From Terriglobia bacterium (GTDB lineage: Bacteria > Acidobacteriota > Terriglobia > 20CM-2-55-15), in contig CAXWPJ010000006.1 of assembly GCA_963664115.2 (NCBI GenBank), positions 1-64,000 on the forward strand: a stretch of 64,000 bases of DNA, read 5' to 3'. The translations under genes and the position numbers were made by a program. This document shows positions 15,846 to 48,380 of the stretch, piece by piece. The notes below the pieces were generated by a model. That model made no database searches and was not told the origin of the DNA. It worked only from the letters and a program-made list of their open reading frames with translations. Within the stretch, counting starts at the first letter, position 1; each line of letters begins with the position of its first letter.

Positions 15846-15908
15846 TCCGATCTTTGGGGCGAGTAGGTTTCGAGCCGGACTCCCCGGCACTCACACTGTC
15901 CGACTGTT

Positions 15909-24228: not shown

Positions 24229-24262
24229 TCAACGTCCGAGAAGATGATTTCTCAGGACTTGA
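24229..24262 (-). repeat. 34-bp cassette-boundary site, copy 1
   Basis: TCAACGTCCGAGAA GATGAT TTCTCAGGACTTGA on the + strand. Confidence 0.95.
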
Positions 24263-24291
24263 GCGGTTAGATCATCTACCGTGCGGACTGA

Positions 24292-25676
24292 GAGTTATAA
24301 CCGAATCTGGTGTTTGAGGGATTGAATAAGAGCGGCGTATCTGGTTGATTTGTTGTGACAAAACTTCAAAGCAACCATAGGAGATACGCCACTGTGAGCA
24401 AGAGTAACGTGAATGGACCGGAAGGTCGAGAAACGATTGAGGATCCAGTAACAGAACTACTACGAGTTGGGGCACAGCAACTGATCCAACGCGCAGTGGA
24501 AGCCGAATTGGCAGAGCTGCTATCCCAGCACGGTGGCCGGCGAACTGAGACAGGAAACGCCGGGGTGGTACGCAACGGTTATCTGCCGGAACGCGAACTG
24601 CAGACGGGATTGGGTCCGGTAACAGTCCAAATCCCGAAGGTCCGTGCCAAGACGGGCGAAGCTGTGACGTTCCGATCGGCCCTGGTACCACCGTACATTC
24701 GGAAGACGAAGTCGCTGGAAGCAGCGGTGCCGTGGTTGTATTTGAAAGGCGTTTCCAGCGGCGAGATGGGTGAGGCCCTAAAAGTTCTTGTCGGTCCCCA
24801 GGCGCAGGGTCTGTCGGCGAGCACGGTATCGCGGTTGAAACAGGTTTGGGGCGAACAGTACCGCCTCGGATGCGAGGAGCGTTTGGATGCAGATCGCTGG
24901 GTCTATGTCTGGGCCGACGGCATCTACAGCGGACTTCGGGCGGAACAAACCAAGTTGTGTGCATTGGTCGTGATCGGCGTGAATGAACGCGGAGAGAAGC
25001 GTTTCCTGGCGATCGAAGACGGTGTACGGGAATCGACACAGAGTTGGCGCGAGGTCTTGTTGAAGCTGAAGTCCCGTGGGATGAATGTTCCGAAGTTGGC
25101 CATCGGTGACGGTGCGATGGGGTTCTGGGCCGCACTGGAGGAAATCTATCCCGAGACACGTCAACAACGTTGCTGGATGCACAAAGTCATGAACGTCCTC
25201 AACTGCCTGCCCAAGTCGGTCCAGGCGAAGGCGAAACAGGCCCTGCACTCGATCTGGCAGGCCGAGACGAAGGCAGACGCCGAGAAGGCATTCGACTTGT
25301 TCATTGAAACCTATGAACCGAAGTATCCGAAAGCCACACTCTGCCTGCAGAAAGACAGAGAGGAACTGCTGGCCTTTTACGACTTTCCGGCCAAGCACTG
25401 GCAGAGCATCAGAACGACGAATCCCATTGAGTCGACCTTTGCCACCATTCGACACCGAACGAAGCGATCCAGAGGTTGCCTGACACGGGATGGCATGCTG
25501 CACATGATGTTCAAACTGGGCCAGTGCGCTGAGAACAATTGGCGACGATTACGAGGATTCGATGATCTGAGCAAGGTAATCATCGGAGTGAAATTCAACG
25601 ATGGTGTCGAAGCGACACAAGTCGATCAGGCCGCCGCTTGAATCAATCTCCTAAACACCACTTTTGACAATAACTC
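24292..25676 (+). mobile_element. IS256-family element; transposase 24355-25641; 9-bp TSD GCGGACTGA
   Basis: Termini and TSD seen directly. Confidence 0.97.
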
Positions 25677-25718
25677 GCGGACTGACTTCCCGTAGTCTAG
25701 TTCTAGGAATTGTCTCGG

Positions 25719-26630
25719 TCACGACTCTATCGCGAAGTCCATCCCCAATAAGCTCTCGCGCAGGAGAGCAGTGTCGCCAATATCATCGCCATATAGGACA
25801 CCGATGACGGCGGCGTGGAGAGCACGAAATCGCGCTATGATTTGGATCGGCTTTTCGACGGCTCCATAGCTATCCCAAAATACTTCGCGACCCTCGGGTG
25901 GCAGAAAACCGAACGCAATAGCCAAATCCATACTGGGGCTTCCTAGGTGGATGTCGCCCCAGTCAATCACGCCGCTTGGCAGTCCAAAGTTGTCCACAAG
26001 GATATGCTCCGCTGAAAAATCGCCGTGTGACAATGTGTTCAACCGCGGTTGAAAGTCCGATGACATCTGTTCAACGATCCGTTCCCAAGGTGAAACGTCA
26101 GCAACCAATCCCTTTCCTCGAATCGTCAGAAGACTTGAGAGCAACTGTGGAATACGTTTTCCCATGTCAGCTCGGCCAAATTTATCTCCCGGAATTTCCA
26201 GATCTCCCGGATCAATGGCATGTAGAGTTGCTAAGAAATTCGCTAAGGGAGCAGCAAGTTCCTTCCTCTGCTCTCGCGTCAATCCAACACTCAGTGCCGT
26301 GGTGCCTGGAAGAAAGCGATAGCCCGCAAACGGCCAATCATACTCTTGTGTTGGCTTACCAACCCATCTTGGTACTGGGATAGGGAAAGGCAACTGAGCT
26401 GCAATTCGAGGAAGGACGCGAGTTTCCGTCTGCAGCAGTTCCACCGCTATCTCTCGGCGAGGAAACCGGAAAACCCAAGTCCTGTTCACTACGTAGGCCG
26501 TATTGTCCCAACCCTCACCTAGAAGTTGGATATGCGCAGGTCGAAGCTCCGGGAATTGGCTTTCGATCAGACGAACGGCCGCATCTGGCATCACGATATG
26601 CTCAGGTAGCCAAGGTTTACCGGTAGGCAT
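25719..26630 (-). CDS. Aminoglycoside phosphotransferase-family kinase
   Basis: Motifs GEGWDN, VFRFPR, HGD and VIDWGD. Confidence 0.88.
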   Translation of the reverse strand: MPTGKPWLPEHIVMPDAAVRLIESQFPELRPAHIQLLGEGWDNTAYVVNRTWVFRFPRREIAVELLQTETRVLPRIAAQLPFPIPVPRWVGKPTQEYDWPFAGYRFLPGTTALSVGLTREQRKELAAPLANFLATLHAIDPGDLEIPGDKFGRADMGKRIPQLLSSLLTIRGKGLVADVSPWERIVEQMSSDFQPRLNTLSHGDFSAEHILVDNFGLPSGVIDWGDIHLGSPSMDLAIAFGFLPPEGREVFWDSYGAVEKPIQIIARFRALHAAVIGVLYGDDIGDTALLRESLLGMDFAIES

Positions 26631-26656
26631 TACTGAAGAGAGTACCAGTCTGGAGT

Positions 26657-26690
26657 TCAACGTCCGAGAAGATGATTTCTCAGGACTTGA
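26657..26690 (-). repeat. 34-bp cassette-boundary site, copy 2
   Basis: Identical to copy 1. Confidence 0.95.
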
Positions 26691-26705
26691 GAACGGATTT
26701 CAGGG

Positions 26706-27068
26706 CTATTCGTTCTCGAAAAAGATCAATCGATTGCCAAACGGATCGGTGATCGTCATCTCTTTTGTGTTCCACGGTTTCTCTTCGACGCTTGGCTTCA
26801 CGTATCGATAGGCCTTGTCCAGTAGTTCTTGATTCAAAGCACCAACGTCATCAGTTTCGATGCGAATCGCGCTCCCTGGCGTCCCGTCGCCGTGGTGTTC
26901 GGAAAGATGAAGGACGCAGTTATCTTTGGACAGTTGCATGTACAGAGGGAACTCATCACCAAACCGATGCTCCCAGTCCACGGAAAACCCCAAGTAAGAG
27001 CCATAGAATTCCTTCGCTTTTGCTTCGTCGAAGATTCTAAGAATAGGGGTCGCGCTGGATAGGCTCAT
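26706..27068 (-). CDS. Glyoxalase/bleomycin-resistance (VOC) protein
   Basis: Motifs TPILRIFDE, LGFSVDWEHRF and DPFGNRLIF. Confidence 0.92.
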   Translation of the reverse strand: MSLSSATPILRIFDEAKAKEFYGSYLGFSVDWEHRFGDEFPLYMQLSKDNCVLHLSEHHGDGTPGSAIRIETDDVGALNQELLDKAYRYVKPSVEEKPWNTKEMTITDPFGNRLIFFENE

Positions 27069-27118
27069 ATGGTCACTAGCTGTGGTGATTGGTCCCGAAA
27101 AGTGGTGAAATCCAATTC

Positions 27119-27210
27119 TCAACGTCCGAGAAGATGATTTCTCAGGACTTGAGAATCGTTTTCACGGTCATCTGCGGAACCGGCACCCGTTCCTTCAGTT
27201 CTTCAAACGG
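27119..27210 (-). repeat. 34-bp site copy 3 (27119-27152) plus accessory motif B (27176-27210)
   Basis: Core identical to copies 1-2, followed by GGAACCGGCACCCGTTCCTTCAGTTCTTCAAAC. Confidence 0.95.
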
Positions 27211-27226
27211 GATAACTCGATGGCAC

Positions 27227-27664
27227 CTACGGTTCCGGCTCCCGCCTCCAACTTGCGCGAATTCCAGCCGACTCCCCGCCCGGTACCCAGATCACCAGAG
27301 TCTTGGTCGGCTGATCTCCCGGAACCTTGTGAACGACTTCGTCACCAGCATGGACGAAGCCTGCCATTCCCGGCGTTAGGATATGACTGATGCCGTTGAC
27401 TATGTGTTCGAGAACTCCCTCAACGACGTAGAAGATCTCCAATGAACCGTGGGCATGAGAGATCGATTCGGTTCCTGCCTGGAAGACCATCTCGCCGACT
27501 TCGATTTCACTCGTTCCAAGATTGCTTTCATCAAGCAGGACGCGCAGAACGGTGCCGCTGGGGGCAACATAAGTGGCACTGGGTGATGCCGACTGAGACA
27601 GTGCAGAGGAAACACAGAAAATCAGGGCGAGTGAGGACAGGATAATGGCGGTTCGATTTAGCAC
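27227..27664 (-). CDS. Secreted cupin-domain protein
   Basis: HAH…EIFYVVEG…H cupin motif. Confidence 0.85.
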   Translation of the reverse strand: MLNRTAIILSSLALIFCVSSALSQSASPSATYVAPSGTVLRVLLDESNLGTSEIEVGEMVFQAGTESISHAHGSLEIFYVVEGVLEHIVNGISHILTPGMAGFVHAGDEVVHKVPGDQPTKTLVIWVPGGESAGIRASWRREPEP

Positions 27665-27772
27665 AATTGACTCCTTCAGACTTAGCTCATCTCGTGAGGG
27701 GCGAGTATTCTTGCGATCACGGGACCGGCACCCATTGCTTCAGCTCTTTCATCGAAGCTGCCCACGCGCTAC

Positions 27773-28657
27773 TCATTCATCCGGTTCGATCAGTTGACTA
27801 CGTACACCTTCCACGTAGCCGGTCGTGTGCACATCAACGTAAAGATTCCCCTGAAGCAAGTCCTGGAGATCCTCTGCAGAGAGCTTAATCGTACCCGATG
27901 CGCCGGCTTCCCCTCTCCCTCCGAGTAGATGGATCATCGGACCGGGCTCATCAAGCGTGCCACGGTGAATGTGAGAACCCAAGACCTCCGCGTCAAGAAC
28001 TCCAGCAACCGACATTGAATACTCTAGGTTCAACGTATACCAGTCTAATGTGAAGCGACTTAGGGCACTCGGGCCGATTTCCGTGGGCGTTGTCTCCTCT
28101 GCTCTCGCTGTCTCCACTTCGAACGTTAAAGGTTCCGGCGGATGCACCAAGCTCGGTGTAGTGACCGGCGGACTTCGATGACGAGTCGCCTGCTCATACG
28201 CGTACGCCAGCGTTATTAACTTGGGTTCGGCGAACTCCCGCCCGAGCAACTCCAATCCGACAGGCATCCCATCTTCCGCGAATCCAGCCGGCACCGTGAG
28301 GGCGGGCAGCCCAGAGGTAGCACTCAGCCGACAGTTACTCCCTGCCTGCTGGGTACCAATAGGCGCAGCGGTTCGTCGAATCGTCGGGTAGACCAAGGCG
28401 TCCAGCGCGTGCTCGTCCATCAATTCGACTACGGCTTGGCGAACCTCATCCCGTTTCGCAATCGCTTCGCGGTACTCGTCAGTATCGAGACTCTCAACCT
28501 CCATCGTCAAGCGAAGCCCGTTTTCAAGCGAGTAATGATAAAGTCCCTTTTCCACGATCTCGTCCAGCGACTTCACAGGCGCTCCGGGTGTCTGCCTCAG
28601 ATAGTCGGTCAGATCGAACCCAAACTCTTGGCGAATAACCGAAAAACCGTCCTCTAG
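27773..28657 (-). pseudogene. Amidase C-terminal part fused to a CHRD domain; N-terminus lost at IS1380
   Basis: GLPALTVPAGF…GLELLG (amidase) and SHIHRG…GNLYVDVHT (CHRD). The frame beyond the IS hits a stop within about 50 bp. Confidence 0.8.
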
Positions 28658-30506
28658 TCCCAAAACAAGCGCATAACCAGTCCGCCGAGGCCCAGTTCGC
28701 GCCGATAGAATTCGAGGCATAGAATCCCGTTCCCGGATGGCCTGTTCCAGGTATCGAGTTTCTGTTGAATCTGTTTCAGTTCAGCCTCGCTGGTGTTGGA
28801 CGGTTGACAGAAACCGGGACCTCGATCGCCCGGGCTCAGAGTCATGATCGGGTCAACATCGCAGAGGCTGACGCAACACATCCACCCCGCGGAACAAGAC
28901 CGGCAACCACCGGTTCCAGGCCAGGATCCGGAACAGAATGCGCCGCCCGGTGCGCACGAGTTGGCACGGCACAAGCATGAAAGCGTTCAAGAAGGTTTTG
29001 AACTCCATGCGCAGCACGGTTTGCTTCTCAGCCTGATATTTTTGGCCCCAACGTCCGGTTTCGGGAAGCAGCAATGCAAACCACGCTTTCAGTGTCCAGG
29101 CCAGTGACGCGATCACCATGTAGGCCCAGTTGCTGGTCTGATCTCCGACCGGCATCCGCAACGCCTGAACGCCGTTCTTCAACTGCTCAATGAGATTCTC
29201 CTGATTGCACCGTTGATTGGCACGCATCACAATCTGGTCGGCCGGATCCGAACGGTTGGTAATGTAGAAGAAGTACCGGATGTCGTCAAACAACACCTGC
29301 TCTCCTTTGGCCACCGACAGATTCTTCCGCACCACGACGACACGGTAGTCCCGATCGCAGGCTCCGGGTCGATACCGAAACTCGGCCACATCCTCACCCT
29401 GCAAGCGGATATTGTCGAAACCGCGCTGCCGAACGATCTCTTCCTTCACGTTGTCGGGACGTTGGCGCGGTTCGGTCGCCACGTCGTATTTCGCGGGCCG
29501 TTCCAGGCGCTTCCACTGGCGCGGCTCCAGTTCATCGGCCCGGGCCTTCAGGTTCGCCATCGCGTCAATCCCGAATATGAAACCCACCTGCTGGTCGTCC
29601 CATCCGTCCAGATGCCGGGTCTGGCTGAAGTCCGTGTCCCCGCGCAGCAGGATCTGGCGAAACCCCGCATGCCGGCACAATGCGATGGCTTGGTCGAACC
29701 GGACCGCGGCTCCTTCATGCGACGGCCGGTTGCCGCTACGATTGACCAGATACAGCGGTTCGGCGGTGTTGGCCAGCGAGATCATCAGCGGGTGATATCC
29801 CCACGTCCCGTCGTAGGCCACGTCCATCCCTTGCTTGCATTCCCCCGTGGTTTCGGCCAGTGTCCCGTCCGCGTCCAACACCGCTTCTTCGAAAAACGCC
29901 GCCGGTTGCTGTCGCCAGACTCCGAGCCGGACTTGATTGGTTGCCTCCATCAGACACTCCACGTCGTCGGCCTCGAATCTCCGGCAGAAGTCTCCCGCCG
30001 TCGTCGGATCCGGAATCCGTTGCGCTCCCAGCGCATCCAGATACACCGCATCGTTGCGCCGCAGTTCGATGTCTTCCAGGCACGTTCCTCCGCTCAAGGC
30101 GTTGTAGGCGATGTTCAGCACGTGATCCGACTCGTGATACGGCAGGTGCCGCTTCAACACATGCACGCCCTTGTCGATGGCTTCGATCAGCCCGGTCCGC
30201 CGCGCCACCAGTTGCATCGTCCCGATACCACCAACCGATGTGCCCCGCGTCCGCTCTCCCATCTCGTACTGAATGTTGCTCGCCGAAAACATCGGCTCTA
30301 CCTGATCCGTCCAATGCCGGTCCCCAAGCCGACGTTCGATTCGCCGCTTGCGGTTCCTCATGTTCTTGCGCGTATAATCGTTCATCTGAAATGCCTCCTT
30401 TTCCGAAGAATCTGTTCAAGGTTTTTTTCGCACGGAGAGGGGGCATTTCGGGTACTTCCGCTCTTATTGCACTATCATTTCCTCGTCAATCACGCTTGTT
30501 CAGGGT
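28658..30506 (-). mobile_element. IS1380-family element; transposase 28853-30385; flanked by CTAG
   Basis: 510-aa DDE transposase (LDADGT, RGDTDF, QENLIEQLK); imperfect TIR CCCAAAACAAGCG/CGCTTGTTCAGGG. Confidence 0.9.
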
Positions 30507-30719
30507 CTAGCCAGGCAGGGGTATCACAGGAATACGTTGCAGCCTGGCCAAGAAGTCACCGTCGTTGGCCATCCTTCGAAATCAGGCGCGCCCGTTGGGC
30601 TTACGGTAGATGTCATACTTGCCGACGGGAGCAAAATACTCCAGAGGAGACAGGCGGGCGCTCCTCCTAGAAACTAAAAATTGAGGACGCGACGCAGAGA
30701 GTTGCGTAGGAGGATCAGA

Positions 30720-31583: not shown

Positions 31584-31832
31584 TCGCGATAGAGACCAGA
31601 AGGGGTTGAGGAGACACGGGGAATTTCACCCCGAGTAACGGGTCGCCGGAAGCGATCCGCAAGATTGCCGACCTCCGGGCCTGCCGTCCCGCGCAACATC
31701 GTCCTGAACTGTTACGAAAATATGACGTAAGCCCTTTAGAATCAGTCCAGGCATTTCGGGGCTTCTTCAGCAGTATCGAGAGCGCGAAAATGCTTATTTT
31801 CATCATTCGGGGTGAGCCGCACTCATGAAGTC

Positions 31833-31914
31833 TGGTTTGAAGAACTGAAGGAACGGGTGCCGGTTCCCTGATTTGCGAGTTCAAGTCCTGAGAAATCATC
31901 TTGTCGGACGTTGA
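31833..31914 (+). repeat. Motif B (31833-31867) plus 34-bp site copy 4 (31881-31914)
   Basis: TGGTTTGAAGAACTGAAGGAACGGGTGCCGGTTCC … TCAAGTCCTGAGAA ATCATC TTGTCGGACGTTGA. Confidence 0.95.
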
Positions 31915-32197
31915 GAATTGGCAAAATCGCGTTGTCGTTGAGTTCTAGGTGATTGAAGTCGGGCAGCCAAAATGTGACCGATCAGCGGACCTCAGACCAA
32001 AGCGACTTCCTGTCGCAGCCCCTACCCCCGTCCGCCGCCGTCGTGGCCAGTCGGGAGGACTCCGGATCACCTGCACCGGACAGAGTCCGTTCCGTGGACA
32101 TGCGGGTCTCAAGCGTATATGCTGCCGACACTCGAAACGCACAACACGGTAACGGACGTTGCAGAGCGTCATTGGGCAAATGACGGAGGGAGATTTG

Positions 32198-32938: not shown

Positions 32939-33014
32939 TCGGTGCAGACAGGACAACGGTTCCTGGCTGACGGTTGACGAAGCTGTCCGGTTAGAGATCG
33001 TCGTCGTCCTGAAC

Positions 33015-33049
33015 TGGTTTGAAGAACTGAAGGAAAGGGTGCCGATTCC
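33015..33049 (+). repeat. Orphan accessory motif B without core site
   Basis: TGGTTTGAAGAACTGAAGGAAAGGGTGCCGATTCC. Confidence 0.85.
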
Positions 33050-33102
33050 ATAGGTTCCTTCTTCGGGATTCTCAGGGAACGATCCCGTTGTGGGATGAGG
33101 GG

Positions 33103-33468: not shown

Positions 33469-33707
33469 CTCCGCTCACCTCCAAAGCACCACTGACTCTA
33501 CGCAGTACGGGGAACGAGCGCAAGGCGAAGTGGCAAACGAAGGACTGACGGGTCCAATTGCGTTCCAGGCAAGCGAAAATAAACGCATCGAATCTCACTG
33601 TCCGCCATCGTCGTTTATAAGGAATTGACCTTCTGATTGCCAACAAACCCCACCTCTAGTATCGTTTGCCGAGTTTTTCACGGTTCGTTTCGACGCACAC
33701 TAAAACG

Positions 33708-33779
33708 ATGGAATCAGGCACACAACTCGGCCACTACGAGATCCTGTCTGCCCTCGGTAAGGGTGGAATGGGAGAAGTG
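33708..33779 (+). pseudogene. N-terminal fragment of a Ser/Thr protein kinase
   Basis: MESGTQLGHYEILSALGKGGMGEV, after which similarity stops. Confidence 0.75.
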
Positions 33780-36900: not shown

Positions 36901-37548
36901 GACTTGATTGGTTGCCTCCATCAGACACTCCACGTCGTCGGCCTCGAATCTCCGGCAGAAGTCTCCCGCCGTCGTCGGATCCGGAATCCGTTGCGCTCCC
37001 AGCGCATCCAGATACACCGCATCGTTGCGCCGCAGTTCGATGTCTTCCAGGCACGTTCCTCCGCTCAAGGCGTTGTAGGCGATGTTCAGCACGTGATCCG
37101 ACTCGTGATACGGCAGGTGCCGCTTCAACACATGCACGCCCTTGTCGATGGCTTCGATCAGCCCGGTCCGCCGCGCCACCAGTTGCATCGTCCCGATACC
37201 ACCAACCGATGTGCCCCGCGTCCGCTCTCCCATCTCGTACTGAATGTTGCTCGCCGAAAACATCGGCTCTACCTGATCCGTCCAATGCCGGTCCCCAAGC
37301 CGACGTTCGATTCGCCGCTTGCGGTTCCTCATGTTCTTGCGCGTATAATCGTTCATCTGAAATGCCTCCTTTTCCGAAGAATCTGTTCAAGGTTTTTTTC
37401 GCACGGAGAGGGGGCATTTCGGGTACTTCCGCTCTTATTGCACTATCATTTCCTCGTCAATCACCCTTGTTCAGGGTCTAGGTACGCTCCGGACTATTTG
37501 GACACGATGATCTCTTGGCTGCTCGAGCGCGTGGAAGTCAACCGGTGA
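33971..37548 (+). pseudogene. Alpha/beta hydrolase (S9/S15-like) interrupted near its 3' end by IS1380
   Basis: Motifs HGWG, YDKRGTG, TSFGG, GELD and GH. Removing the IS restores …RSRYAPDYLDTMISWLLERVEVNR*. Confidence 0.85.
35629..37477 (-). mobile_element. IS1380-family element; transposase 35824-37356; CTAG TSD
   Basis: Protein identical to the 28853-30385 copy; 1849 bp. Confidence 0.92.
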
Positions 37549-37620: not shown

Positions 37621-37702
37621 TGGTTTGAGGAACTGAAGGAACGGGTGCCGGTTCCCTGATTTTCAAGGTCAAGTCCTGATAAATCATCTTGTCGGAAGTT
37701 GA
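37621..37702 (+). repeat. Motif B (37621-37655) plus 34-bp site copy 5 (37669-37702)
   Basis: TCAAGTCCTGATAA ATCATC TTGTCGGAAGTTGA. Confidence 0.95.
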
Positions 37703-37756
37703 GAAAAAAGAAGGGAAAATTTCTTATCGAGTCCCAGATAATCGTAGTTAGGCCAG

Positions 37757-39654
37757 ATGAACTGCGAAACGATCAGACGAGCGTACAACTCTGATTCCGC
37801 ACGGATAATTTCGCTCATAGCCGACGTCTATCGAGAGTACGGCGACGAGATCTATCTAGAAGGAGCGGACAAGGATCTAGTTGATATTGAAGGATATTAC
37901 CGACAGGTAAGCGGGGATTTTGTCATATTGGAAAGGAATGACGAAATCGCAGGAACGCACGCCGTACTCCCGCTTGACCTAGCGAATCGCGTCATAACCT
38001 TCAGACGGCTGTACCTTCGGCAGGAGTTGCGTGGGTCGGGTTGCGGAAAGCGGTTGATGAAATGGGCAATCGATTGGTCGATGCGCGAAGGCTATCACTC
38101 AGTAGAGTTTTGGTCTGACATGCGATTCCAACGGGCACACAGGTTCTTTCAGCAATTAGGTTTCACGAAAGGGGATACTGAGTTATTGTCAAAAGTGGTG
38201 TTTAGGAGATTGATTCAAGCGGCGGCCTGATCGACTTGTGTCGCTTCGACACCATCGTTGAATTTCACTCCGATGATTACCTTGCTCAGATCATCGAATC
38301 CTCGTAATCGTCGCCAATTGTTCTCAGCGCACTGGCCCAGTTTGAACATCATGTGCAGCATGCCATCCCGTGTCAGGCAACCTCTGGATCGCTTCGTTCG
38401 GTGTCGAATGGTGGCAAAGGTCGACTCAATGGGATTCGTCGTTCTGATGCTCTGCCAGTGCTTGGCCGGAAAGTCGTAAAAGGCCAGCAGTTCCTCTCTG
38501 TCTTTCTGCAGGCAGAGTGTGGCTTTCGGATACTTCGGTTCATAGGTTTCAATGAACAAGTCGAATGCCTTCTCGGCGTCTGCCTTCGTCTCGGCCTGCC
38601 AGATCGAGTGCAGGGCCTGTTTCGCCTTCGCCTGGACCGACTTGGGCAGGCAGTTGAGGACGTTCATGACTTTGTGCATCCAGCAACGTTGTTGACGTGT
38701 CTCGGGATAGATTTCCTCCAGTGCGGCCCAGAACCCCATCGCACCGTCACCGATGGCCAACTTCGGAACATTCATCCCACGGGACTTCAGCTTCAACAAG
38801 ACCTCGCGCCAACTCTGTGTCGATTCCCGTACACCGTCTTCGATCGCCAGGAAACGCTTCTCTCCGCGTTCATTCACGCCGATCACGACCAATGCACACA
38901 ACTTGGTTTGTTCCGCCCGAAGTCCGCTGTAGATGCCGTCGGCCCAGACATAGACCCAGCGATCTGCATCCAAACGCTCCTCGCATCCGAGGCGGTACTG
39001 TTCGCCCCAAACCTGTTTCAACCGCGATACCGTGCTCGCCGACAGACCCTGCGCCTGGGGACCGACAAGAACTTTTAGGGCCTCACCCATCTCGCCGCTG
39101 GAAACGCCTTTCAAATACAACCACGGCACCGCTGCTTCCAGCGACTTCGTCTTCCGAATGTACGGTGGTACCAGGGCCGATCGGAACGTCACAGCTTCGC
39201 CCGTCTTGGCACGGACCTTCGGGATTTGGACTGTTACCGGACCCAATCCCGTCTGCAGTTCGCGTTCCGGCAGATAACCGTTGCGTACCACCCCGGCGTT
39301 TCCTGTCTCAGTTCGCCGGCCACCGTGCTGGGATAGCAGCTCTGCCAATTCGGCTTCCACTGCGCGTTGGATCAGTTGCTGTGCCCCAACTCGTAGTAGT
39401 TCTGTTACTGGATCCTCAATCGTTTCTCGACCTTCCGGTCCATTCACGTTACTCTTGCTCACAGTGGCGTATCTCCTATGGTTGCTTTGAAGTTTTGTCA
39501 CAACAAATCAACCAGATACGCCGCTCTTATTCAATCCCTCAAACACCAGATTCGGTTATAACTCGGGGATACTCGGAATATGACAGATGGAGCCATGCCC
39601 TACTCAGAGTATCGATTCTCAATGAACTTGTTTGGGCAAAATAATATTGCCTAA
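37757..39654 (+). pseudogene. GNAT acetyltransferase interrupted by IS256
   Basis: RRLYL..ELRGSG.GKRL motif; a 167-aa ORF is restored by removing the IS and one TSD. Confidence 0.88.
38180..39564 (-). mobile_element. IS256-family element; transposase 38215-39501; 9-bp TSD GGGGATACT
   Basis: Termini and TSD seen directly. Confidence 0.97.
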
Positions 39655-39776
39655 CACGGGATGCAGTGGACGGCCTTCCGCTGGCGCTCCAGGCTCCACG
39701 GGTGGTCGAGGTCCACGTTTGGGGCCTAACAAGCCGCTGCAGCTGGCGGGGCCGGCAAAAGAGGTGAAAATGATTC

Positions 39777-39810
39777 TCAAGTCCTGAGAAATCATCTTGT
39801 CGGACGTTGA
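39777..39810 (+). repeat. 34-bp site copy 6
   Basis: TCAAGTCCTGAGAA ATCATC TTGTCGGACGTTGA. Confidence 0.95.
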
Positions 39811-39841
39811 GAATTGCGCGATCCCCCAAAACCGTGTGCTT

Positions 39842-40063
39842 ATGCAGTTTTCCCGATTTCCAAAATCGACTGAGAAGCGATGGTACTTGAGTGTGCTTTG
39901 TGCGAAATGCCACTCGCCGATTTTGTTCGGTCTGGATCGAACCGAAGGACGCGGTCCGTTCGAGCCGCTGGCACAGCTGTTTCTCACCTGCAGCGAATCT
40001 GAATGCGGGCATCGCTCTGATTACAGTGCGGCGAAGGTATCTCCATACCAGAAGAATCCGTAA
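39842..40063 (+). CDS. Small Cys-rich (zinc-ribbon-like) hypothetical protein
   Basis: CAKC and C….CGH motifs; fills the 355-bp module between sites 6 and 7. Confidence 0.55.
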   Translation: MQFSRFPKSTEKRWYLSVLCAKCHSPILFGLDRTEGRGPFEPLAQLFLTCSESECGHRSDYSAAKVSPYQKNP

Positions 40064-40117
40064 TCTTCGAGGTGAGCGTTGGAGCTGCGAACGTGAACGT
40101 ATAAAACAGCCTGACGT

Positions 40118-40199
40118 TGGTTTGAAGAACTAAAAGAACGGGTGCCGATTCTCTGATTTTCGCGGTAAAGTCCTGATAAATCATCTTCTCGGACATTGA
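40118..40199 (+). repeat. Motif B (40118-40152) plus 34-bp site copy 7 (40166-40199)
   Basis: TAAAGTCCTGATAA ATCATC TTCTCGGACATTGA. Confidence 0.9.
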
Positions 40200-40329
40200 C
40201 CTTCGCGAAGAGCTGTTAAAGGCGCTCGGACTTTTCGTTTGCTGCTTCAACGGGTTCTCAGGACCCTCACGCTTCTCGCTCAACCTCCCCGGACAGTGTC
40301 CACAACATCCTCAGATTTGAAGTGCCCGC

Positions 40330-40585
40330 ACGGCCACACCAACCGACCCGACAACGGGAGCGACAGATGCGACGGTTCAAGTCGCCACGGCAGGCGCAAC
40401 TCTTCCTCTCAGTTCACGGTGTCGTTCTGAATCTTTTCCCGTTGGGAAGGCACAGACTAAAAGCGGTTCACCACCAGATGCTTCGGGCCCGTTCCTTTGC
40501 GACTTGGAATGCGGTCTCGGTAGGCTGATCGAGCGGCGCCGATCTGGCACAGGTTCGACCTTTGGACCCGTAAGTTGACAGTACC
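40330..40585 (+). mobile_element. IS6-family transposase 3' remnant with terminal repeat
   Basis: HQPTRQRERQMRRFKS..QAQ.FL motif; end AAGTTGACAGTACC. Confidence 0.75.
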
Positions 40586-40783
40586 TGGATGACCGTGCCT
40601 GATGCGATCGAGGCAATTTGGGTTGAGAACGGGCCATGGTCATGGGACTGATCTCGGCAAGGTCGGGACGAGGCTGATACACTTCGGACGGGACTCGATG
40701 GCCGTGCTAGGATCAACCTGTCAATGCCGGTCGCGGTTCTGCGGAGTGCCGTGTAGCAAGGAGTAGCAGGAGGGAGGGACGTC

Positions 40784-41830
40784 ATGCAGAAAATTCTAGG
40801 TTTCGTTGTCTTGTTGGCGATGCCCGTGGTTGTTGTTGGCGTATTGAGCGCCCAGAGCGAGCAATCGGCTAACGGCCAAGCATTGGTGCAGACTGAGCGA
40901 CCTGATTGGGCCTATGGCATCCCATTGGGGCCGCGTCCTCCCCGTCCGGAAGAGGATGGGACGGTCTTCAGCTTGCCCGATACTGACCGGACGTTCACGG
41001 CCACCCAGATTCGCGGTCGCTCTCCCGCCGACTGGTATCCCGACGACCATCCAACGCCGATGCCTGACATCGTTGCGAACGGTCGGACGGCAGAGGAGGG
41101 CGCTGTCGTGCGGGCGTGTGCGCTTTGTCACTACCCCAATGGGCAAGGGCGCCCGGAGAACGCTGGCGTCGCGGGCTTACCGGTTTCGTATTTCATCCAG
41201 CAGATGGACGATTTTCGCAACGATCTGAGGAATAGCTCAGAACCGAGAAAGAACAACGCTCGGACGATGACCCAAATCGCGAAGAACATGACCGAAGAGG
41301 AGATCGTTGCTGCTGCCGAGTACTTCGGCGCACAGCCTTGGAGGCCATGGGTCCGGGTCGTGGAGACCGACACCGTATTCGAGAGCTACACGCTGGGGGG
41401 CATTTATCTCCCAGTGGACTGTGAAATCGACATCTTCACGGAGTGCCAGGCTACTGCTGCTACGTCGGGCACTGAACCGATCGGGCTGCGTATCGTTGAA
41501 ACCCCGGAGAATATCGAGCACGCAGAGGTGCACCGTAATCCGAGGTCCGGCTGGATCGCTTATGTTCCGGTTGGTGCGGTCGAGAAGGGTAGGGCATTGG
41601 CCGAGGCCGGGCAGTGCAGTATCTGTCACGGTCCAGGTCTGAAGGGTCTCGGCCCCTTGCCTGGAATCGCGGGTCGGTCTGCCAGTTACCTCATGCGGGC
41701 GTTGTATGACATGCAGCAGGGCACGCGTAAGGGACTGTGGTCTGAGCTGATGACGCCGGTCGTTGCCGATCTCAGTACGGAAGACTTGCTGTACCTTGTT
41801 GCTTACGCGGCGTCCCTTGACCCGCAATAG
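40784..41830 (+). CDS. Di-heme c-type cytochrome (c4/c553-like)
   Basis: CALCH and CSICH, signal peptide. Confidence 0.9.
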   Translation: MQKILGFVVLLAMPVVVVGVLSAQSEQSANGQALVQTERPDWAYGIPLGPRPPRPEEDGTVFSLPDTDRTFTATQIRGRSPADWYPDDHPTPMPDIVANGRTAEEGAVVRACALCHYPNGQGRPENAGVAGLPVSYFIQQMDDFRNDLRNSSEPRKNNARTMTQIAKNMTEEEIVAAAEYFGAQPWRPWVRVVETDTVFESYTLGGIYLPVDCEIDIFTECQATAATSGTEPIGLRIVETPENIEHAEVHRNPRSGWIAYVPVGAVEKGRALAEAGQCSICHGPGLKGLGPLPGIAGRSASYLMRALYDMQQGTRKGLWSELMTPVVADLSTEDLLYLVAYAASLDPQ

Positions 41831-42224
41831 CTTCTGCTGGCATTGGCAAGTTGATCGATCGAGGATACTTTTTCACCAGAGTGCACATGTGCTTCCTGTC
41901 AGTCAGCAGACAGACGTCATCGCCACCCACTGGGCTGCGAAGCAGACGATGGTGAGCTGATCGAAGGTGTGGTCCGGCGTATGGGCTGACCGTTCATGCC
42001 CTTGCCCGCACGATGGCGTTGTACTCGTCGGTTGCCACCCGCAACGCCTCGTTGTCGGTGATGGGCGTCAGCGTGCCGTTGAACTCGGCGTACAGCCGGA
42101 ACGTGTTCAGCACGACCCGCCCCGCGTCCAGCCAGTTGGTGAACTTGCCCATGTTGAGCGGATAAGCGGAACAAGCGGGGTCTGACAACTATCAGAGCGC
42201 TGACGGTGTCGTAGATTTGCTTGG

Positions 42225-42258
42225 TCAAGTCCTGAGAAATCATCTTCTCGGACGTTGA
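42225..42258 (+). repeat. 34-bp site copy 8
   Basis: TCAAGTCCTGAGAA ATCATC TTCTCGGACGTTGA. Confidence 0.95.
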
Positions 42259-42587
42259 ACTTTTACAACCTAGGCCGGCATCAACCGAGCCTGCCGAGTC
42301 ATCCCCCAAAATCAACAACTTGGAACCGAGGCGGTGGGCGGAGTCGCTGTTGAGTTGCGTGAGGCGTGCTAAGATTTCTCCGAGGTGTGGCCAGTGGAAA
42401 GCATGCGTAAAGCCATAGTCGTTGTTTTGGGTTGCAGCTCTGCTCCTAAGTGCGTTCACAAGCCTCGATGTGGATTCTCTGTATGCCGTTCTAGCCCTCA
42501 CGTTCTGGCTGTACCTCACTGCCGTCACTCTCCGCTATAAACAAACCGAAGTCGAGGCGGCCAGTAAATGCTAGTAAGGAGAAGCGA

Positions 42588-43679
42588 ATGCGTAGCAGTA
42601 CGACAAGCGTGATTCTGGCGGTTTTGGTCGCAGCGCTGGTGCTCGCGTCAGGGGGCTTTGGCCAGACGCCTGAGTTGAGGCGTTCGTCGCCCACCGAGGC
42701 AACGCGATGGACGATTGAGCACATCGCCGGCGGCGTCTACAGGGCTATGAGCAACAACCACGGCACCGTCTTCCTGGTCACGCCGGAAGGCATCGTCTTG
42801 GCGGATCCGATCAACATTGAATTCTCGATGTGGCTGAAGGAGGAGTTCGCCGCTCGGTTCGGGGTCCCGGTCAGATACGTCGTCTACAGCCACTACCACT
42901 GGGACCATGCCTCCGGCGGGGACGTCTTCGCGGATACGGCCCGGTTTGTGGGTCATGCCAACATGCTCTCGTACCTGGCGATGCCGCCAGCGTCTACCAC
43001 GCTCTCGCAAGTCGTTGGGCAGTACGAGCCCGTGGCGGCGCTGGATACCAACGGCAACGGAGTGGTTGAGGAAAGTGAGACACCTGCGGACCTCCAGCGC
43101 TTCGCCGGCTCGAGCCAGAGCCAGTTCGAAGGATTCGACGCGAACGAGGACGGCGTGCTCAGCGGCGCGGAGGTTGTGCGCGGACCAATTAGCTTTGTGC
43201 GTCCTCCTGATATCACCTATACAGACGAGTTTCAGATCAACTTGGGCGGAAAACGGGTGAACCTGACCTGGGTTGGCGAGATGAATCACTCGAAGGACTC
43301 GAGCATGATCACCTTTCCAGACGACAGCGTGATGTTGATCGTCGACTATGTCTCGTTCGGGCGGCTTCCGAACAGGGAGATGGACTACGAACTCGGGATG
43401 TTCGAAGAGTGGATGGCTGCTATCAGTCAAACGGAGGAGCTAGCGGCAGACTTTGAGTTCGTTGCGACAGGCCACGGGCCGGTGGGCACCCGGGAAGACG
43501 TCAGAGCGTGGCGAGAGTACTTCGAAACACTCCGAGACGAGGTTGCCGCCGGCATCGCTTCGGGCCAGACACTGGAGGACATGCAACGAGACATCAAGAT
43601 GGAAGAGTACAGTCACTGGGGGGACTTCGATTGGGTCGACGAGAACGTCCTCGGCATGTATCACTTCCTGACCGATTGA
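42588..43679 (+). CDS. Metallo-beta-lactamase-fold protein with EF-hand-like insert
   Basis: SHYHWDH and TGHG; loops DTNGNGVVEESE and DANEDGVLSGAE. Confidence 0.85.
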   Translation: MRSSTTSVILAVLVAALVLASGGFGQTPELRRSSPTEATRWTIEHIAGGVYRAMSNNHGTVFLVTPEGIVLADPINIEFSMWLKEEFAARFGVPVRYVVYSHYHWDHASGGDVFADTARFVGHANMLSYLAMPPASTTLSQVVGQYEPVAALDTNGNGVVEESETPADLQRFAGSSQSQFEGFDANEDGVLSGAEVVRGPISFVRPPDITYTDEFQINLGGKRVNLTWVGEMNHSKDSSMITFPDDSVMLIVDYVSFGRLPNREMDYELGMFEEWMAAISQTEELAADFEFVATGHGPVGTREDVRAWREYFETLRDEVAAGIASGQTLEDMQRDIKMEEYSHWGDFDWVDENVLGMYHFLTD

Positions 43680-43766
43680 TGCTTCGGATATTCTCTAGCC
43701 TTCGGACACGCTACTGCCGGTGCCGTGAAGCGGCGTTCTATCCCCTCAAAAGCCTGAAATCTGTTT

Positions 43767-43800
43767 TCAAGTCCTGATAAATCATCTTCTCGGACCTTGA
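43767..43800 (+). repeat. 34-bp site copy 9
   Basis: TCAAGTCCTGATAA ATCATC TTCTCGGACCTTGA. Confidence 0.95.
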
Positions 43801-43859
43801 GAATTCTACAGGGGGTTAAGTGGCCCTCCTCACGAAGCCGTGACCTCAGCCCACCTCCA

Positions 43860-44960
43860 TCATTGATCCGTTTGACAATCGTAGATCGGAATCGAATCTC
43901 CAAGAGCCAGCCAATAACCCTCGATGGTTGCGGGTTCGGTGAAGGTTTGCGGGTCAGTTACTGTTATTTGGAAATCCAGGCGGCTCTGATCGTTGCTCAC
44001 GGTAAACCGTTCCACGATTTCGACTGCCTCGCTTTGTGGCGTACCGATGGTGTCGAAGAAGGGCCAGTTGATTCGACTGGTTCTAACGACCAGGGTTCCC
44101 TCTTGCCATTCTCCTACCGAGTAACCCAGCCTTGAAGCGGGTTCGTTGGGAGGGGGCTCGGATCGATTCAGATGGATCGTCCGCTCAATGTCGTAAAACT
44201 CGGTCCTCAGCGTAATCTGATCCCGATGATCGATGAACTCGAAAGGATGCGGATTGGTCATGATTCTCGGCATGCCTTCCGGTTCGCAACGGATCGCGAA
44301 ATTGTCGAACATGTCCCATGACTCCCTTGCAGCAATCGCGGATTCCTGAAAGGGCAGGTGGGTAACTACTCGACGAGCACGTCCACGTGGAACACTCCAG
44401 ACGCGAAAAATTCCCTCACCGTCGCCGTTCAGCCCACGTTCAGCCAACAAATCTCGACCGCCAAGTATCTCTTCCGACCATCGAGGCTGGGTTGGCCAGA
44501 GCAATACCTCACGCCCATCTGTAAACAAAATGTTGGTGGCGAGAAAGTCCAGCTCGTCGCGACTCGATCTCCTACCGGCCACCCTCACACGCTCGCCTAT
44601 TGTGAACAAGTCTTGGGTTATACCTTGGCGCTGCAAGTTATAAATAGAATTTCCATGCATGATCCGAATCTCTTCCTCACCGTTGGTATTCATCGTTTTT
44701 ACAGCGATTCTAATGTGTGGGTTTCTCCACTCTAAAGCCAGGAGTTCGCCTACCGCTTCAGTGATTTCGTCGACGTAACCAGCAACGGAATGGTGAGCGG
44801 ACACGACGACGGGCCAACTAAAGAAGACACCAGCCATCGCAAGGCCACCAAAGAGGAGCCTCCTTCTAACCCGTTTCCGTCGTGTCGCAATTCGGTCCAG
44901 CATGTCTTTCCCTCCGATTCCCTTGAGGTAGGTCACATGAAAACGAAGAATGTACTGCAT
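43860..44960 (-). CDS. Fusion of a DUF6152-like domain and a 'GYSVGEWQEGTLVV' domain (start uncertain)
   Basis: AHHS…WRNPH N-domain; CEPEG, the family motif and YDC in the C-domain. Confidence 0.85.
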   Translation of the reverse strand: MQYILRFHVTYLKGIGGKDMLDRIATRRKRVRRRLLFGGLAMAGVFFSWPVVVSAHHSVAGYVDEITEAVGELLALEWRNPHIRIAVKTMNTNGEEEIRIMHGNSIYNLQRQGITQDLFTIGERVRVAGRRSSRDELDFLATNILFTDGREVLLWPTQPRWSEEILGGRDLLAERGLNGDGEGIFRVWSVPRGRARRVVTHLPFQESAIAARESWDMFDNFAIRCEPEGMPRIMTNPHPFEFIDHRDQITLRTEFYDIERTIHLNRSEPPPNEPASRLGYSVGEWQEGTLVVRTSRINWPFFDTIGTPQSEAVEIVERFTVSNDQSRLDFQITVTDPQTFTEPATIEGYWLALGDSIPIYDCQTDQ

Positions 44961-45055
44961 GTCAATCTTTGTCTACGTCAACGCTGCATGGGCTCGTGAA
45001 TCATGCCATCCCAACAGAGTCGGATGGCAGACCTGTCCATCTCCGAAATCCATTC

Positions 45056-45089
45056 TCAAGTCCTGTTAAATCATCTTGTCGGACGTTGA
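45056..45089 (+). repeat. 34-bp site copy 10
   Basis: TCAAGTCCTGTTAA ATCATC TTGTCGGACGTTGA. Confidence 0.95.
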
Positions 45090-45275
45090 GAATTGGCATT
45101 TGCGGAATGTTCCGTTGCTATCGAGTTCTAGATCACTGTAGTTATGCCCCGCAGCGTATATCCGGCAATGTTGAAGGTCGCATTCGAACCAAAACGGATA
45201 GTCGAACTGAGGAGGTAGGCTCGTCAGAGCGCCCAGAGTGCACGCTCTACGAAAACTGAAAGAACACTGTGGCGA

Positions 45276-46835
45276 CTATTCCTGCATTACCCTCTCGTGC
45301 AACATTTCGACCGTCCTCCAGGCAGCTTGGATGGCGCCTTCGAGCCACGCCGGACGCGAACTGGCGCCCGCACATCCCATATAGATCCGACCATCGGCCT
45401 TGCTGAGTTGTTCCAGATGCGCTCCACGCGGGGTGCTGTGGTAGGCGCCCAGGCTGTACGGAACTTTTTCCCACCAAACACAGTATGCGCTCTCGAATTC
45501 TTCGCGCATCTGAGGATGCACCTTGCCCGCATAGGTAAGCACGTGATCAATTCGGGCCTCGAGAGGCATGTCCGCCAGATCCGCCATCTCGCCATTACCG
45601 TAAAAGCCGAGGAGAACGCCCTTTTGGGTAAAAAAGTCGTTCGAAGGGTAGGAAAACTCTCCGAGCTGGAGACTCCGTGTCCAAAGGTGCCCACCGAAGA
45701 TCCCCTCGTCCTCTTCCCAGAAGCGCCGCCTCATCTGCAATCCCATCTTGGCGCTCGTACTGTGACGGCTGTCATTCACGGCCTGGGTCATCTCGGCCGA
45801 CAGGTTCGCGTCGATTCCTTTCATGACGGCCATCGGCAGGCAGCAGACGCAGTAATCGGCGGTCTCCTCCCGCTCGGTGCCGGTTCTCGTCTCTCGGTAG
45901 ACTACTCGAACGCCATCGCCTGTCTGGCGAATCGTCTTCACTTCGGCTTCCAGTGTGATCCGGTCGCCGAGAGCACGCTGGAACGCCAGAGGGATCTCCA
46001 TCATGCCGCCCACGGGCTGAAATAGCGGGTCGGGTCCCCCGGTTCCGGCTTCGAGCGATCGGACGCGACTTCCAAACCCCGACTGGAGCAGCGCGCCGAG
46101 ATCGTAGGGATCCTGAGAGCCGCGGGAGTTGGGCGGCTGGTACACGTGATCTTCGGAATCCAGGTATCCCGCCCGGACCAGAAATTCAACCAGCAGATTC
46201 TTGTCTCCTTCCGTGAGCGGGAGGTCAATCGCACCCTGTTCCATCGCCTTCGTGAGCAACTCGGTCGTGGAGCCCCACAGGTCGGCCTTGACCTCCCGCA
46301 GGCGGACCCGCCTGCCCGACAGCGGTCCCCGTTCGGGGTCTTCTTCGTAAAAGTAGTTTGCATCGCTCGAGTTGACGAACAGTTCCAGTGGAACGCCGAG
46401 CTCCTTGCAGTAGCCCAAGATCCCCTTGTCGGCATTCGGAATGCGCCACGCGCCTGCGTTGAAGTACTGCCCCTCGTCGAATCGACAGACCTGCCGCTCC
46501 CCGCCGACTTCGGTGTGCCCCGATCCACGGCGGAGCGTCCACATGAGGCCGCCGACCCGATCACGGGCTTCGAGGATCCTGTAGTCGTATCCCAGCTTCC
46601 CCAGCTCGTAACCAACCGTCAGACCAGACAACCCCGCACCCAGGACAACAACCCGTGTCCCGGGCGGCCTCCCCTGCAAAAGCGGCCGAGGGCCGGAAGG
46701 AGCGCCCATCAGACCCCATGTATTCATGGTGCCCACGACCAGGGAGGAACCACCCACGGCGCCAAACCGCTCGAGAAGCTGACGCCGGGTCATCACTGAA
46801 GGATTCGTCCGTTTATCGTGTGGTTGATGGCTCAT
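45276..46835 (-). CDS. Flavin monoamine oxidase / L-amino-acid oxidase family protein
   Basis: Motifs GAGLSGL, EARDRVGG, NAGAWRIP and WLEGAI. Confidence 0.92.
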   Translation of the reverse strand: MSHQPHDKRTNPSVMTRRQLLERFGAVGGSSLVVGTMNTWGLMGAPSGPRPLLQGRPPGTRVVVLGAGLSGLTVGYELGKLGYDYRILEARDRVGGLMWTLRRGSGHTEVGGERQVCRFDEGQYFNAGAWRIPNADKGILGYCKELGVPLELFVNSSDANYFYEEDPERGPLSGRRVRLREVKADLWGSTTELLTKAMEQGAIDLPLTEGDKNLLVEFLVRAGYLDSEDHVYQPPNSRGSQDPYDLGALLQSGFGSRVRSLEAGTGGPDPLFQPVGGMMEIPLAFQRALGDRITLEAEVKTIRQTGDGVRVVYRETRTGTEREETADYCVCCLPMAVMKGIDANLSAEMTQAVNDSRHSTSAKMGLQMRRRFWEEDEGIFGGHLWTRSLQLGEFSYPSNDFFTQKGVLLGFYGNGEMADLADMPLEARIDHVLTYAGKVHPQMREEFESAYCVWWEKVPYSLGAYHSTPRGAHLEQLSKADGRIYMGCAGASSRPAWLEGAIQAAWRTVEMLHERVMQE

Positions 46836-46885
46836 GAGACTTAGTCCTCATTGGGATCCTGAAACGGAGCCGGCGGGCCCGACCT

Positions 46886-47899
46886 CTACGCGATTACCTG
46901 CTGATAGGCATCTACAATCTCACTCCCGGTTGGAAACCAGACACCATCGTGCTGCTGAAAGTGCGCAATCGCTCTTTCCAGGTAAGGCGTGCGACGAGGC
47001 TGTCCCGTCAGGAACGGATGGAGCGGAATCCCCATGACGCGGGCCGTTTTCTGGCTGTCGGCGTAAAGACTGTCAAACTGGTCCGTGAGTGCCTGAAAGT
47101 ATTGTTCCCCGGTATAGTTGTGGCGGAGGAGGAGCGACATGTCGTTGATTTCCATGCCGTAGGGAACAGCGAAGAGCTGGCCGGTATTCACCCTCATGGC
47201 GATTGGCTGATCGTCGATGTTCCAATCGCCGACGTAGACGACTCCTTCTTCAGCGAGAAGATCGGGGGTATTGAAAGTTTCCACGAGCCCCGGCCCTAGC
47301 CAGCCGCGCGGCCGCTTCCCGGTCGCCTGCTCGATGGTCCGCAGCGTTGTCCGGATCACTTCCCGTTCTTGCTCCAGGGGAAGGTTCGCCAGGTTCGAGC
47401 TATTCGTGATTCCGTGGCCCATGAACTCCCAGCCTCGGTTCTGCATCTCTTGAACCGCTGTGGGAAACACCTCGCAGACCATGGAATTCAACGCCACCGT
47501 TGCCCGGATTCCTGCCGCATCGAGCACATCCGCAATTCTCCACAGCCCTACCCGGATTCCATAATCTCGCCACGCATAGTTGATAACGTCGGGTACCCGG
47601 TTATTAGTATTGGGAGATATCGCCGCACCGGCCGGTGAGTCGAACTGCCACACTTCAACGTTGGGAATAATCCACACCGCGAGTGTCTTACCTCCCGGCC
47701 ACGTAAAAGGTCTACGCTCAAAAATGAACGAATCCTCATAGCGGTCTGCTCTTCGCATGATGGGGCTTCGTTGTTGCGCACTCGCGCCAAGTGGCCCTTG
47801 GAATCGAGAGGCGGCCAGCACGCCGGCCGCACCGGCCAGCGCCGACCCGACAAAGCAACGACGGTTCACACCCTTGGATTTCATTCTACGTCCCTCCAT
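46886..47899 (-). CDS. Polysaccharide deacetylase family protein (PuuE-like), Tat signal
   Basis: Motifs WRDYG.RVG, MGHG, PRGWLGP and PLHPF. Confidence 0.9.
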   Translation of the reverse strand: MEGRRMKSKGVNRRCFVGSALAGAAGVLAASRFQGPLGASAQQRSPIMRRADRYEDSFIFERRPFTWPGGKTLAVWIIPNVEVWQFDSPAGAAISPNTNNRVPDVINYAWRDYGIRVGLWRIADVLDAAGIRATVALNSMVCEVFPTAVQEMQNRGWEFMGHGITNSSNLANLPLEQEREVIRTTLRTIEQATGKRPRGWLGPGLVETFNTPDLLAEEGVVYVGDWNIDDQPIAMRVNTGQLFAVPYGMEINDMSLLLRHNYTGEQYFQALTDQFDSLYADSQKTARVMGIPLHPFLTGQPRRTPYLERAIAHFQQHDGVWFPTGSEIVDAYQQVIA

Positions 47900-48277
47900 T
47901 CTCTTCCGCGCCGCCCTGAAGCAAAACTAAGCTTGCCGTTTATTCAAAGACGGCGGGACAGTGTCCTTTCGAGCCCCTCGAACGACGCTCGGACGAAGCT
48001 CCGGCTTTTCCGCGTCGGGCAAAGCTCAGAGGAAAATCTGCCATTTCAAACACATTCGCACCGTGATGCCTTCGTGTCGCTACCACATCTGGAGGGCATT
48101 CTACTGCCTTCCATCCCCATTGCGGGAGCGAAAGCGACGTACACGCAACACCCGCTTCAGAGGAACGATCTTCGCTATGGACGGAGACAGCCCCGCCTCC
48201 CTTACTGAGAAACACTTGAAGAGCCGTCTGCCTGACGACACAGTATCCAAGTATTATCAGGAGCACCTTGTGCTGTT

Positions 48278-48380
48278 GAACTGAAGGAACGCTTGCCGGC
48301 GCCGCAAAGCCGCGTTCTATGGCCTCAACATCCTTGAAATCCATTCTCAAGTCCTGAGAAATCATCTTCTCGGACGTTGA
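48278..48380 (+). repeat. Degenerate motif B (to 48303) plus 34-bp site copy 11 (48347-48380)
   Basis: GAACTGAAGGAACGCTTGCCGGCGCC … TCAAGTCCTGAGAA ATCATC TTCTCGGACGTTGA. Confidence 0.93.

Follow-up and report, generated by a model that had tools for sequence, protein, structure and literature searches.

Lox-like 34-bp sites as probable joints of gene modules in the genome of a Terriglobia bacterium

What are the 34-bp imperfect palindromes that separate unrelated genes near the start of one contig of a Terriglobia bacterium, and what has happened at them? We analyzed the stretch of 64,000 nucleotides that opens contig C6 (CAXWPJ010000006.1; hereafter "the window") of a 4.89-Mb genome, G000, that is 97% complete. 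An initial annotation, made from the letters alone, had read an island in this window as a cassette array built by site-specific recombination at 11 dif-like sites. All 11 sites were found where they had been placed, with 0 to 2 substitutions from the consensus, and the spacer ATCATC, claimed to be invariant, was present in every one. We term sites with this spacer "A-type" and those with a spacer of the class ACGAC[A/C] "B-type." Comparisons of sequence show that DNA was copied and re-joined at the 34-bp sites, which we take to be the joints of gene modules; a tyrosine recombinase encoded elsewhere than in the window was probably responsible.

Repeats that end at sites support this reading. 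Comparisons within G000 showed that modules recur from site to site in different rows and that new junctions lie inside a site. The DUF6152 module of the window has a copy in C2 that runs from site to site between different neighbors, with 3 differences in 1255 bp. The 355-bp module is likewise repeated site to site in C10, and the APH module is repeated in C12 with one end at a site (Table 1). The site at C11:55484 has the left flank of site 39777 on one side and the right flank of site 27119 on the other, and the switch falls within 27 bp that include the spacer. Among endpoints of low-copy repeats, 21 of 202 (a list that holds a few reciprocal duplicates) lie inside a site in both copies; sites make up 0.2% of the genome. 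When site pairs were compared over 200-bp flanks, 23 shared one flank and 9 shared both, all 9 of them in duplicated regions. Against 50 sites of a relative, G002 (part of its 80 or more), 8 pairs shared one flank and none shared both.

Such arrays are not special to this island. Within the window, the site was indeed absent outside the island, but the whole genome gave 184 matches at ≤9 mismatches, 127 of them at ≤4. Reversed-sequence controls gave zero matches, both for the window (≤8 mismatches) and for the genome (≤9). The spacer was ATCATC in 143 of the 184 matches and ACGACA or ACGACC in 19; by spacer, 145 of the 168 intact copies are of type A and 23 of type B. The spacer is nearly invariant and falls into two discrete classes, in contrast to the freely varying arm positions 12, 23, and 30. 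Contig C11 repeats most of window positions 1 to 46165 at 99.8% identity, in rearranged pieces. It may represent a strain haplotype that the assembly has retained, and some copy counts may therefore be too high by about ten sites.

These roughly 170 copies form clusters in accessory regions rich in insertion sequences (IS). We found 130 of the 168 sites in 19 clusters of at least three, compared to a mean of 58 and a maximum of 85 in 500 trials of uniform scatter. The genome-wide scan suggested in the initial annotation thus speaks against even scatter of the REP/MITE kind. The clusters cover 367 kb, with high-copy DNA at 19% inside versus 6.5% elsewhere. Neighboring A sites face the same way in 95 of 101 cases, at a median spacing of 2.4 kb, and of the 21 B sites that are clustered together with A sites, 19 oppose the nearest A. 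Relative to the site direction, the longest non-IS open reading frame (ORF) of 80 modules ran the same way in 49 and the opposite way in 23, with none in 8. Seven of the 19 clusters lie near island integrases versus 2.4 expected (p 0.007; this count includes the C6/C11 duplicate as well as the C5 recombinase described below). Proximity of clusters to tRNA genes was not significant (10/19 versus 7.2 expected; p 0.13).

The site has a narrow range. Under a strict pattern, 6 of 41 genomes matched: G000 with 120 copies, three genomes of its genus with 80 (G002), 33 (G003), and 9, and two genomes of another genus with one each. A shorter pattern matched in 10 of 35 family genomes. There were zero matches in 400 other genomes of the phylum and no exact match in viral contigs; 11 metagenome contigs matched. 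One run labeled as sponge metagenome covers 25 of 30 bins of 39600 to 48500, at low depth and with few differences. The nearest clusters of the host XerC are dominated by Acidobacteriota, and the 56 loci related to one G000 integrase belong without exception to this phylum.

Neither the second spacer class nor a link to one gene family had been recognized in the initial annotation. Both classes of site are linked to a Ser/Thr kinase that has beta-propeller repeats (883 to 902 amino acids). For 137 kinase 3′ motifs, the left arm of a site lay within 80 bp in 95 and exactly 16 bp away in 68. A kinase 3′ remnant stands at five of the 11 A sites in the window, and a kinase start, or what remains of one, follows many B sites at a distance of about 80 bp. 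At C5:155678-158503, a B and an A site enclose a split kinase; at C10:248433-251283, an intact kinase is enclosed by two A sites that face the same way. In related genera (G047 and G048; L158, L159, L163, L165, and L166), tandem kinases in which the stop overlaps the next start (ATGA) carry no site. Other genera (L180, L173, L175, and L190) have variant sites after kinase ends, with spacer GTCGCA or another left arm. The site family may be wider than the search pattern that we used.

What kind of site is this? Its geometry, AA-N6-TT with 14-bp arms, fits both 11-6-11 and 13-8-13, and the label "dif-like" gave way to "lox-like" once the arms were compared. The consensus agrees with VloxP (read from plasmid p0908, NC_010113) at 22 of 26 arm bases, including the outer TCAA/TTGA. 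Mean identity to VloxP was 11.7 of 14 (8.8 of 11) for the arm on the XerC side and 11.2 of 14 (8.3 of 11) for the arm on the XerD side (the left arm); to the host dif, the same two arms reached 7.2/11 and 5.2/11. The sites lox1 and lox6 (supplement of PMC10250229) are of the same type. Identity with the chromosomal dif, a check that the initial annotation had called for, is ruled out: a separate dif lies at C2:108118-108145, where the GC skew switches and some 42 kb away from xerD. Of 35 family genomes, 20 match this dif, 17 of these with a single copy.

If a tyrosine recombinase does act here, recombination of two same-spacer A sites would excise a module or integrate it into another row, and recombination of two sites facing each other would invert the DNA between them. 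B sites would recombine only among themselves because their spacer differs. The founding unit was likely a Ser/Thr kinase gene with a B site on one side and an A site on the other; in the order of events that we propose, most of the kinase then gave way to other genes, while its ends stayed behind next to the sites. A more ambitious version, which we advance tentatively and think could well be wrong, is a cassette system that spans the genome and is distinct from both integrons and dif modules. In it, some 170 lox sites with the same spacer would be interchangeable slots for a Cre-like recombinase. Such a natural SCRaMbLE would shuffle about 7% of the chromosome and would have driven the spread of the Ser/Thr kinase family in this lineage, and the recombinase would itself travel on a module flanked by two B sites.

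A number of results weigh against recombination at the sites by a tyrosine recombinase, beginning with the arms. In 11 pairs that share one flank at ≥97% (one IS-broken and one B-type pair were left out), the arm on the shared flank differed no less than the far arm (1.09 versus 0.64 differences; random, 1.3 to 1.7), and the attached arms differed in 6 of the 11. This implies that crossovers were not confined to the spacer or that arms were rewritten later: junctions may migrate through the short homology, the arms may be altered by later exchange, or the exchange may be homologous. The C11 junction does fit a spacer-confined crossover with arms inherited, but it sits in about 50 bp of near identity, enough for homologous recombination. 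Of the original proposal of a cassette array built by site-specific recombination, the borders where DNA was re-joined and the tyrosine-recombinase geometry stand, while the arm variants do not travel with the module, contrary to a simple spacer-only crossover. Among 12 loci with homologous cargo in relatives, the site was kept at the shared border in only 2, so much of the cargo looks like ordinary genes captured in this lineage. Single-site circles, which the initial annotation had suggested looking for, were not seen in eight runs, all of them assembled contigs that break at sites, with joints at sites whose sides were <35 bases not used. One run (X16) had no cover over 45243-48212 and did cover the neighboring module; no contig joins across, and this was not counted as a loss.

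The search for an enzyme belongs with these points. As had been reported, the window holds no intact recombinase; the sole piece is a C-terminal integrase fragment (15909-16475) adjoining an IS256-type element. G000 has 27 matches to PF00589, of which XerC, XerD, and IntI pass NCBIfam cutoffs, and xerC and xerD are intact. None of the recombinases checked in G000, G002, and G003 was tied to the site. The best single candidate for the partner, though a doubtful one, is a 316-amino-acid recombinase at C5:52189-53139. It is flanked at about 100 bp on either end by a B site that faces inward, and this is the only stretch enclosed by two inward-facing B sites. A tyrosine recombinase gene near sites, as the initial annotation had asked for, was found, but no link emerged, and searches of G002 (80 sites) and G003 (33 sites) did not find the gene. 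The site was present at 0 of 64 loci of relatives of this recombinase (51 to 68%; 56 from soil and 8 from the family). Just downstream of some of these relatives (L010, L019, L026, L028, L030, L035, L214, and L217), AA-GCCCTG-TT and AA-GCCGAC-TT are enriched, a weak signal that was picked post hoc.

Host XerC/XerD would be nearly as good a guess as the C5 recombinase, and they are the only recombinases found in all three array-rich genomes. The recognition helix of XerD reads RGG or RAG in genera with sites and RMG in genera without, a pattern that is uninformative because kin share it; in Escherichia coli, it reads RQ. Close behind, and somewhat less probable, comes a Cre-type enzyme missing from the assembly. 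The C5 recombinase is weakly similar to VCre (E 6e-4, among 26 integrases), and G000 has no VCre homologue (best E, 0.29). A VCre-like gene with 33% identity and 69% GC does occur in G002 (L208:1346-2737, C2), in G003 (L207, C11), and at L210. It is flanked by its own inverted 13-8-13 sites, which are unlike the A and B sites, in the same layout as the C5 recombinase. A neighboring repeat-protein gene follows it in G002 but lies upstream of it in G003, and the junction falls at the site. Despite its presence in two array-rich relatives, this gene is ruled out as the partner by its own, different sites; gene and sites together make a candidate recombinase-site pair. Twenty regions with other recombinase-like matches in G002 and G003 held no full site within the stretches, and the one match by an A/B pair is a decayed fragment. 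The single IntI (C9:714590), with a few attC-like sites around it (L098, C9:705000-724000), is unrelated to the arrays. It was not linked to the 34-bp site, with no copy within 19 kb and no IntI found in G003.

How else could the pattern have arisen? The sites may be a dispersed repeat that spread with the expanding kinase family, with modules moving by homologous recombination or gene conversion over 35 to 90 bp of site plus kinase remnant. We regard this as possible but rather doubtful. Many sites do share an extra 30 to 60 bp of kinase sequence, the arm variants are unlinked to the flank, the C11 crossover cannot be placed in the spacer, no cognate recombinase was found, and where relatives have homologues of the cargo, the border mostly lacks a site. 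Such a repeat does not account for two near-invariant spacer classes beside freely varying arm positions, or for the arm identity with VloxP. Shared flanks also end at sites without a kinase remnant (e.g., 43767 and 45056), and kinase 3′ motifs are equally common in G048, G047, G007, and G004 (53, 27, 25, and 39), where sites number 0 to 5. It is unlikely that a non-autonomous transposon-like element, with B and A sites as its inverted ends, was moved by a transposase in trans and brought along first the kinase and later other cargo. A sites outnumber B sites about 6 to 1 and stand in direct rows, the intact kinase in C10 lies between same-facing A sites, the palindrome runs on both sides of the spacer, unlike a terminal repeat, and the transposases near sites are intruders lying inside broken sites. 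What speaks for such an element is the B-kinase-A layout in C5, together with head-to-tail units that have A-B linkers of 24 bp or 114 bp.

A single-stranded hairpin, REP-like or attC-like and cut by an HUH enzyme or an integron integrase, seems quite unlikely as well. The predicted fold is a hairpin with bulges at about −8 kcal/mol, IS91-type transposases with their own integrase lie in or near several sites, and the genome has an IntI gene. However, positions 12 and 23 form Watson-Crick pairs in 45 of 115 sites, compared to a shuffle mean of 49.5. This lack of covariation favors a double-stranded protein-binding site, and the HUH alternative raised at the outset gains no support from it. Our own heuristic, which found attC-like sites at the IntI locus, found no attC in window positions 23001 to 50000, and the distance between sites and IntI, the failure to find IntI in G003, and cargo ORFs in both directions also stand against this alternative. 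Rfam gave no match to the site. An operator for a dimeric DNA-binding protein, with no role in recombination, is very improbable: it would suit a palindrome and B sites 80 bp before kinase start codons, whereas most A sites come after a stop codon or the remnant of a gene, sequence sharing ends at the sites, and a fixed spacer would be unexpected.

Returning to the window, its first three A sites (24229, 26657, and 27119) lie on the minus strand and the other eight on the plus strand, so that the island consists of two direct-repeat rows facing apart (Table 1). A twelfth, degenerate site of the ACGAC type is an addition to the earlier list. The cargo named in the initial annotation was borne out by Pfam matches for APH, glyoxalase, GNAT, cytochrome c, metallo-beta-lactamase, DUF6152, amine oxidase, and deacetylase, but not for the zinc ribbon: in the 355-bp module, Pfam matched neither of the two ORFs tested. 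Positions 39727 to 39776, just before site 39777, resemble what we take to be the 5′ half of an attC, a hint of integron cassettes captured into modules. The IS256-type and DDE elements inside modules of the window are later arrivals, since contigs of 3 of 4 runs skip them.

Table 1. Sites, modules, and inserted elements of the window (positions in the 64,000-nucleotide stretch).
Feature	Position	Strand	Remark
tRNA-Arg, then island integrase cut by IS256-type element	15702..16475		~8 kb left of array; context
A-type site	24229..24262	-
IS256-type element, later insertion	24292..25676	+	skipped by contigs of 3/4 runs
APH-family module	25677..26656	-	99.5% copy at C12:558058-559074, ending at site
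A-type site	26657..26690	-
Glyoxalase module, 428 bp between sites	26691..27118	-	Pfam
A-type site	27119..27152	-	kinase 3′ remnant upstream (27179)
DDE transposase element (PF13701)	28653..30510	-	second copy 35624-37481
A-type site	31881..31914	+	after kinase 3′ remnant (31842)
Degenerate B-type site	33595..33628	-	spacer ACGACG
5′ remnant of Ser/Thr kinase family	33708..33779	+	80 bp from B-type site
A-type site	37669..37702	+	after kinase 3′ remnant (37630)
GNAT module	37703..39776	+	broken by IS256-type element (38180-39564)
A-type site	39777..39810	+
355-bp module	39811..40165	not assigned	site-to-site copy C10:252898-252476 (95.5%)
A-type site	40166..40199	+	after kinase 3′ remnant (40127)
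Cytochrome c module	40200..42224	+	Pfam
A-type site	42225..42258	+
Metallo-beta-lactamase-fold module	42259..43766	+	Pfam
A-type site	43767..43800	+
DUF6152 module	43801..45055	-	site-to-site copy C2:264297-265623
A-type site	45056..45089	+
Amine oxidase + polysaccharide deacetylase module	45090..48346	-	ends in kinase 3′ remnant (48278, +)
A-type site	48347..48380	+

Sites elsewhere in the genome have also drawn mobile elements. Two IS110-family elements and an element with an HTH_38/rve transposase are inserted in spacers, in several copies each. Elements that combine an IntI-related integrase with an IS91-family transposase number eight, six of them identical and most of them near sites (L099-L101; C1:92965, C12:570146, and C3:2990). 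They begin with GTT(A/T)GAAC and insert at GTT-like triplets, and three of their ends abut the edge of a spacer. At C12:17026-20581, an insertion that starts with GTGTG right after the spacer, and is itself interrupted, is possibly a group II intron.

If the reading of the sites as recombination joints is true, this would be a second lineage, after Acinetobacter, with site-bounded module shuffling outside integrons. Such building of an accessory genome would have arisen more than once and would be workable with direct repeats. It raises the question of how a cell with so many compatible sites avoids deleting its own DNA. It also suggests how the Ser/Thr kinases of acidobacteria could have expanded and may provide a new recombinase-site pair close to VCre/VloxP. 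We found no published description of the site in a search that missed most subscription journals and bioRxiv supplements.

How does the array compare with known systems? Chromosomal integrons likewise have same-facing joints, modules of one or two genes, and, in part, the same type of cargo (APH, glyoxalase, and GNAT). Unlike them, the array has no attC features, a fixed length of 34 bp, no covariation, cargo on both strands, and many rows, none of them beside IntI; the distinction from integrons drawn in the initial annotation thus holds. REP/REPIN sequences with RAYT, as we understand them, resemble the sites as short intergenic palindromes, here some 170 of them in one lineage and targeted by IS110-family elements. 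Our sites differ in being clustered in IS-rich regions, in having one orientation, a fixed spacer, and no covariation, and in that exchange ends at them.

The Cre-type systems VCre/VloxP, YR1/lox1, YR6/lox6, and SCre/SloxP share the 34-bp 13-8-13 site and, for VloxP, most arm bases (PMC3082901, PMC10250229, and NC_010113). Their site adjoins the recombinase gene, unlike the roughly 170 copies here in a genome without a VCre homologue. Acinetobacter dif modules are described as having dif-like sites in alternating orientation (C and D modules) and are called unique to Acinetobacter (PMC13141974); site-hunting IS are known for pdif (PMC10132070). Our array resembles these modules and islands in its unrelated accessory genes between 11-6-11 sites, same-spacer shuffling, chromosomal islands, and site-targeting IS (PMC13141974, PMC12907356, and PMC10132070). 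It is nonetheless distinct from pdif modules, as the initial annotation had held: pdif sites alternate and are host-dif-like, and here neighbors are overwhelmingly same-facing, one spacer dominates, the host dif is poorly matched, least of all by the left arm against the XerD arm, and the chromosomal copies are tied to a kinase family. Taken together, the array appears to work like Acinetobacter dif modules, yet it shows neither of the two features that define them, a dif-like site and alternating orientation.

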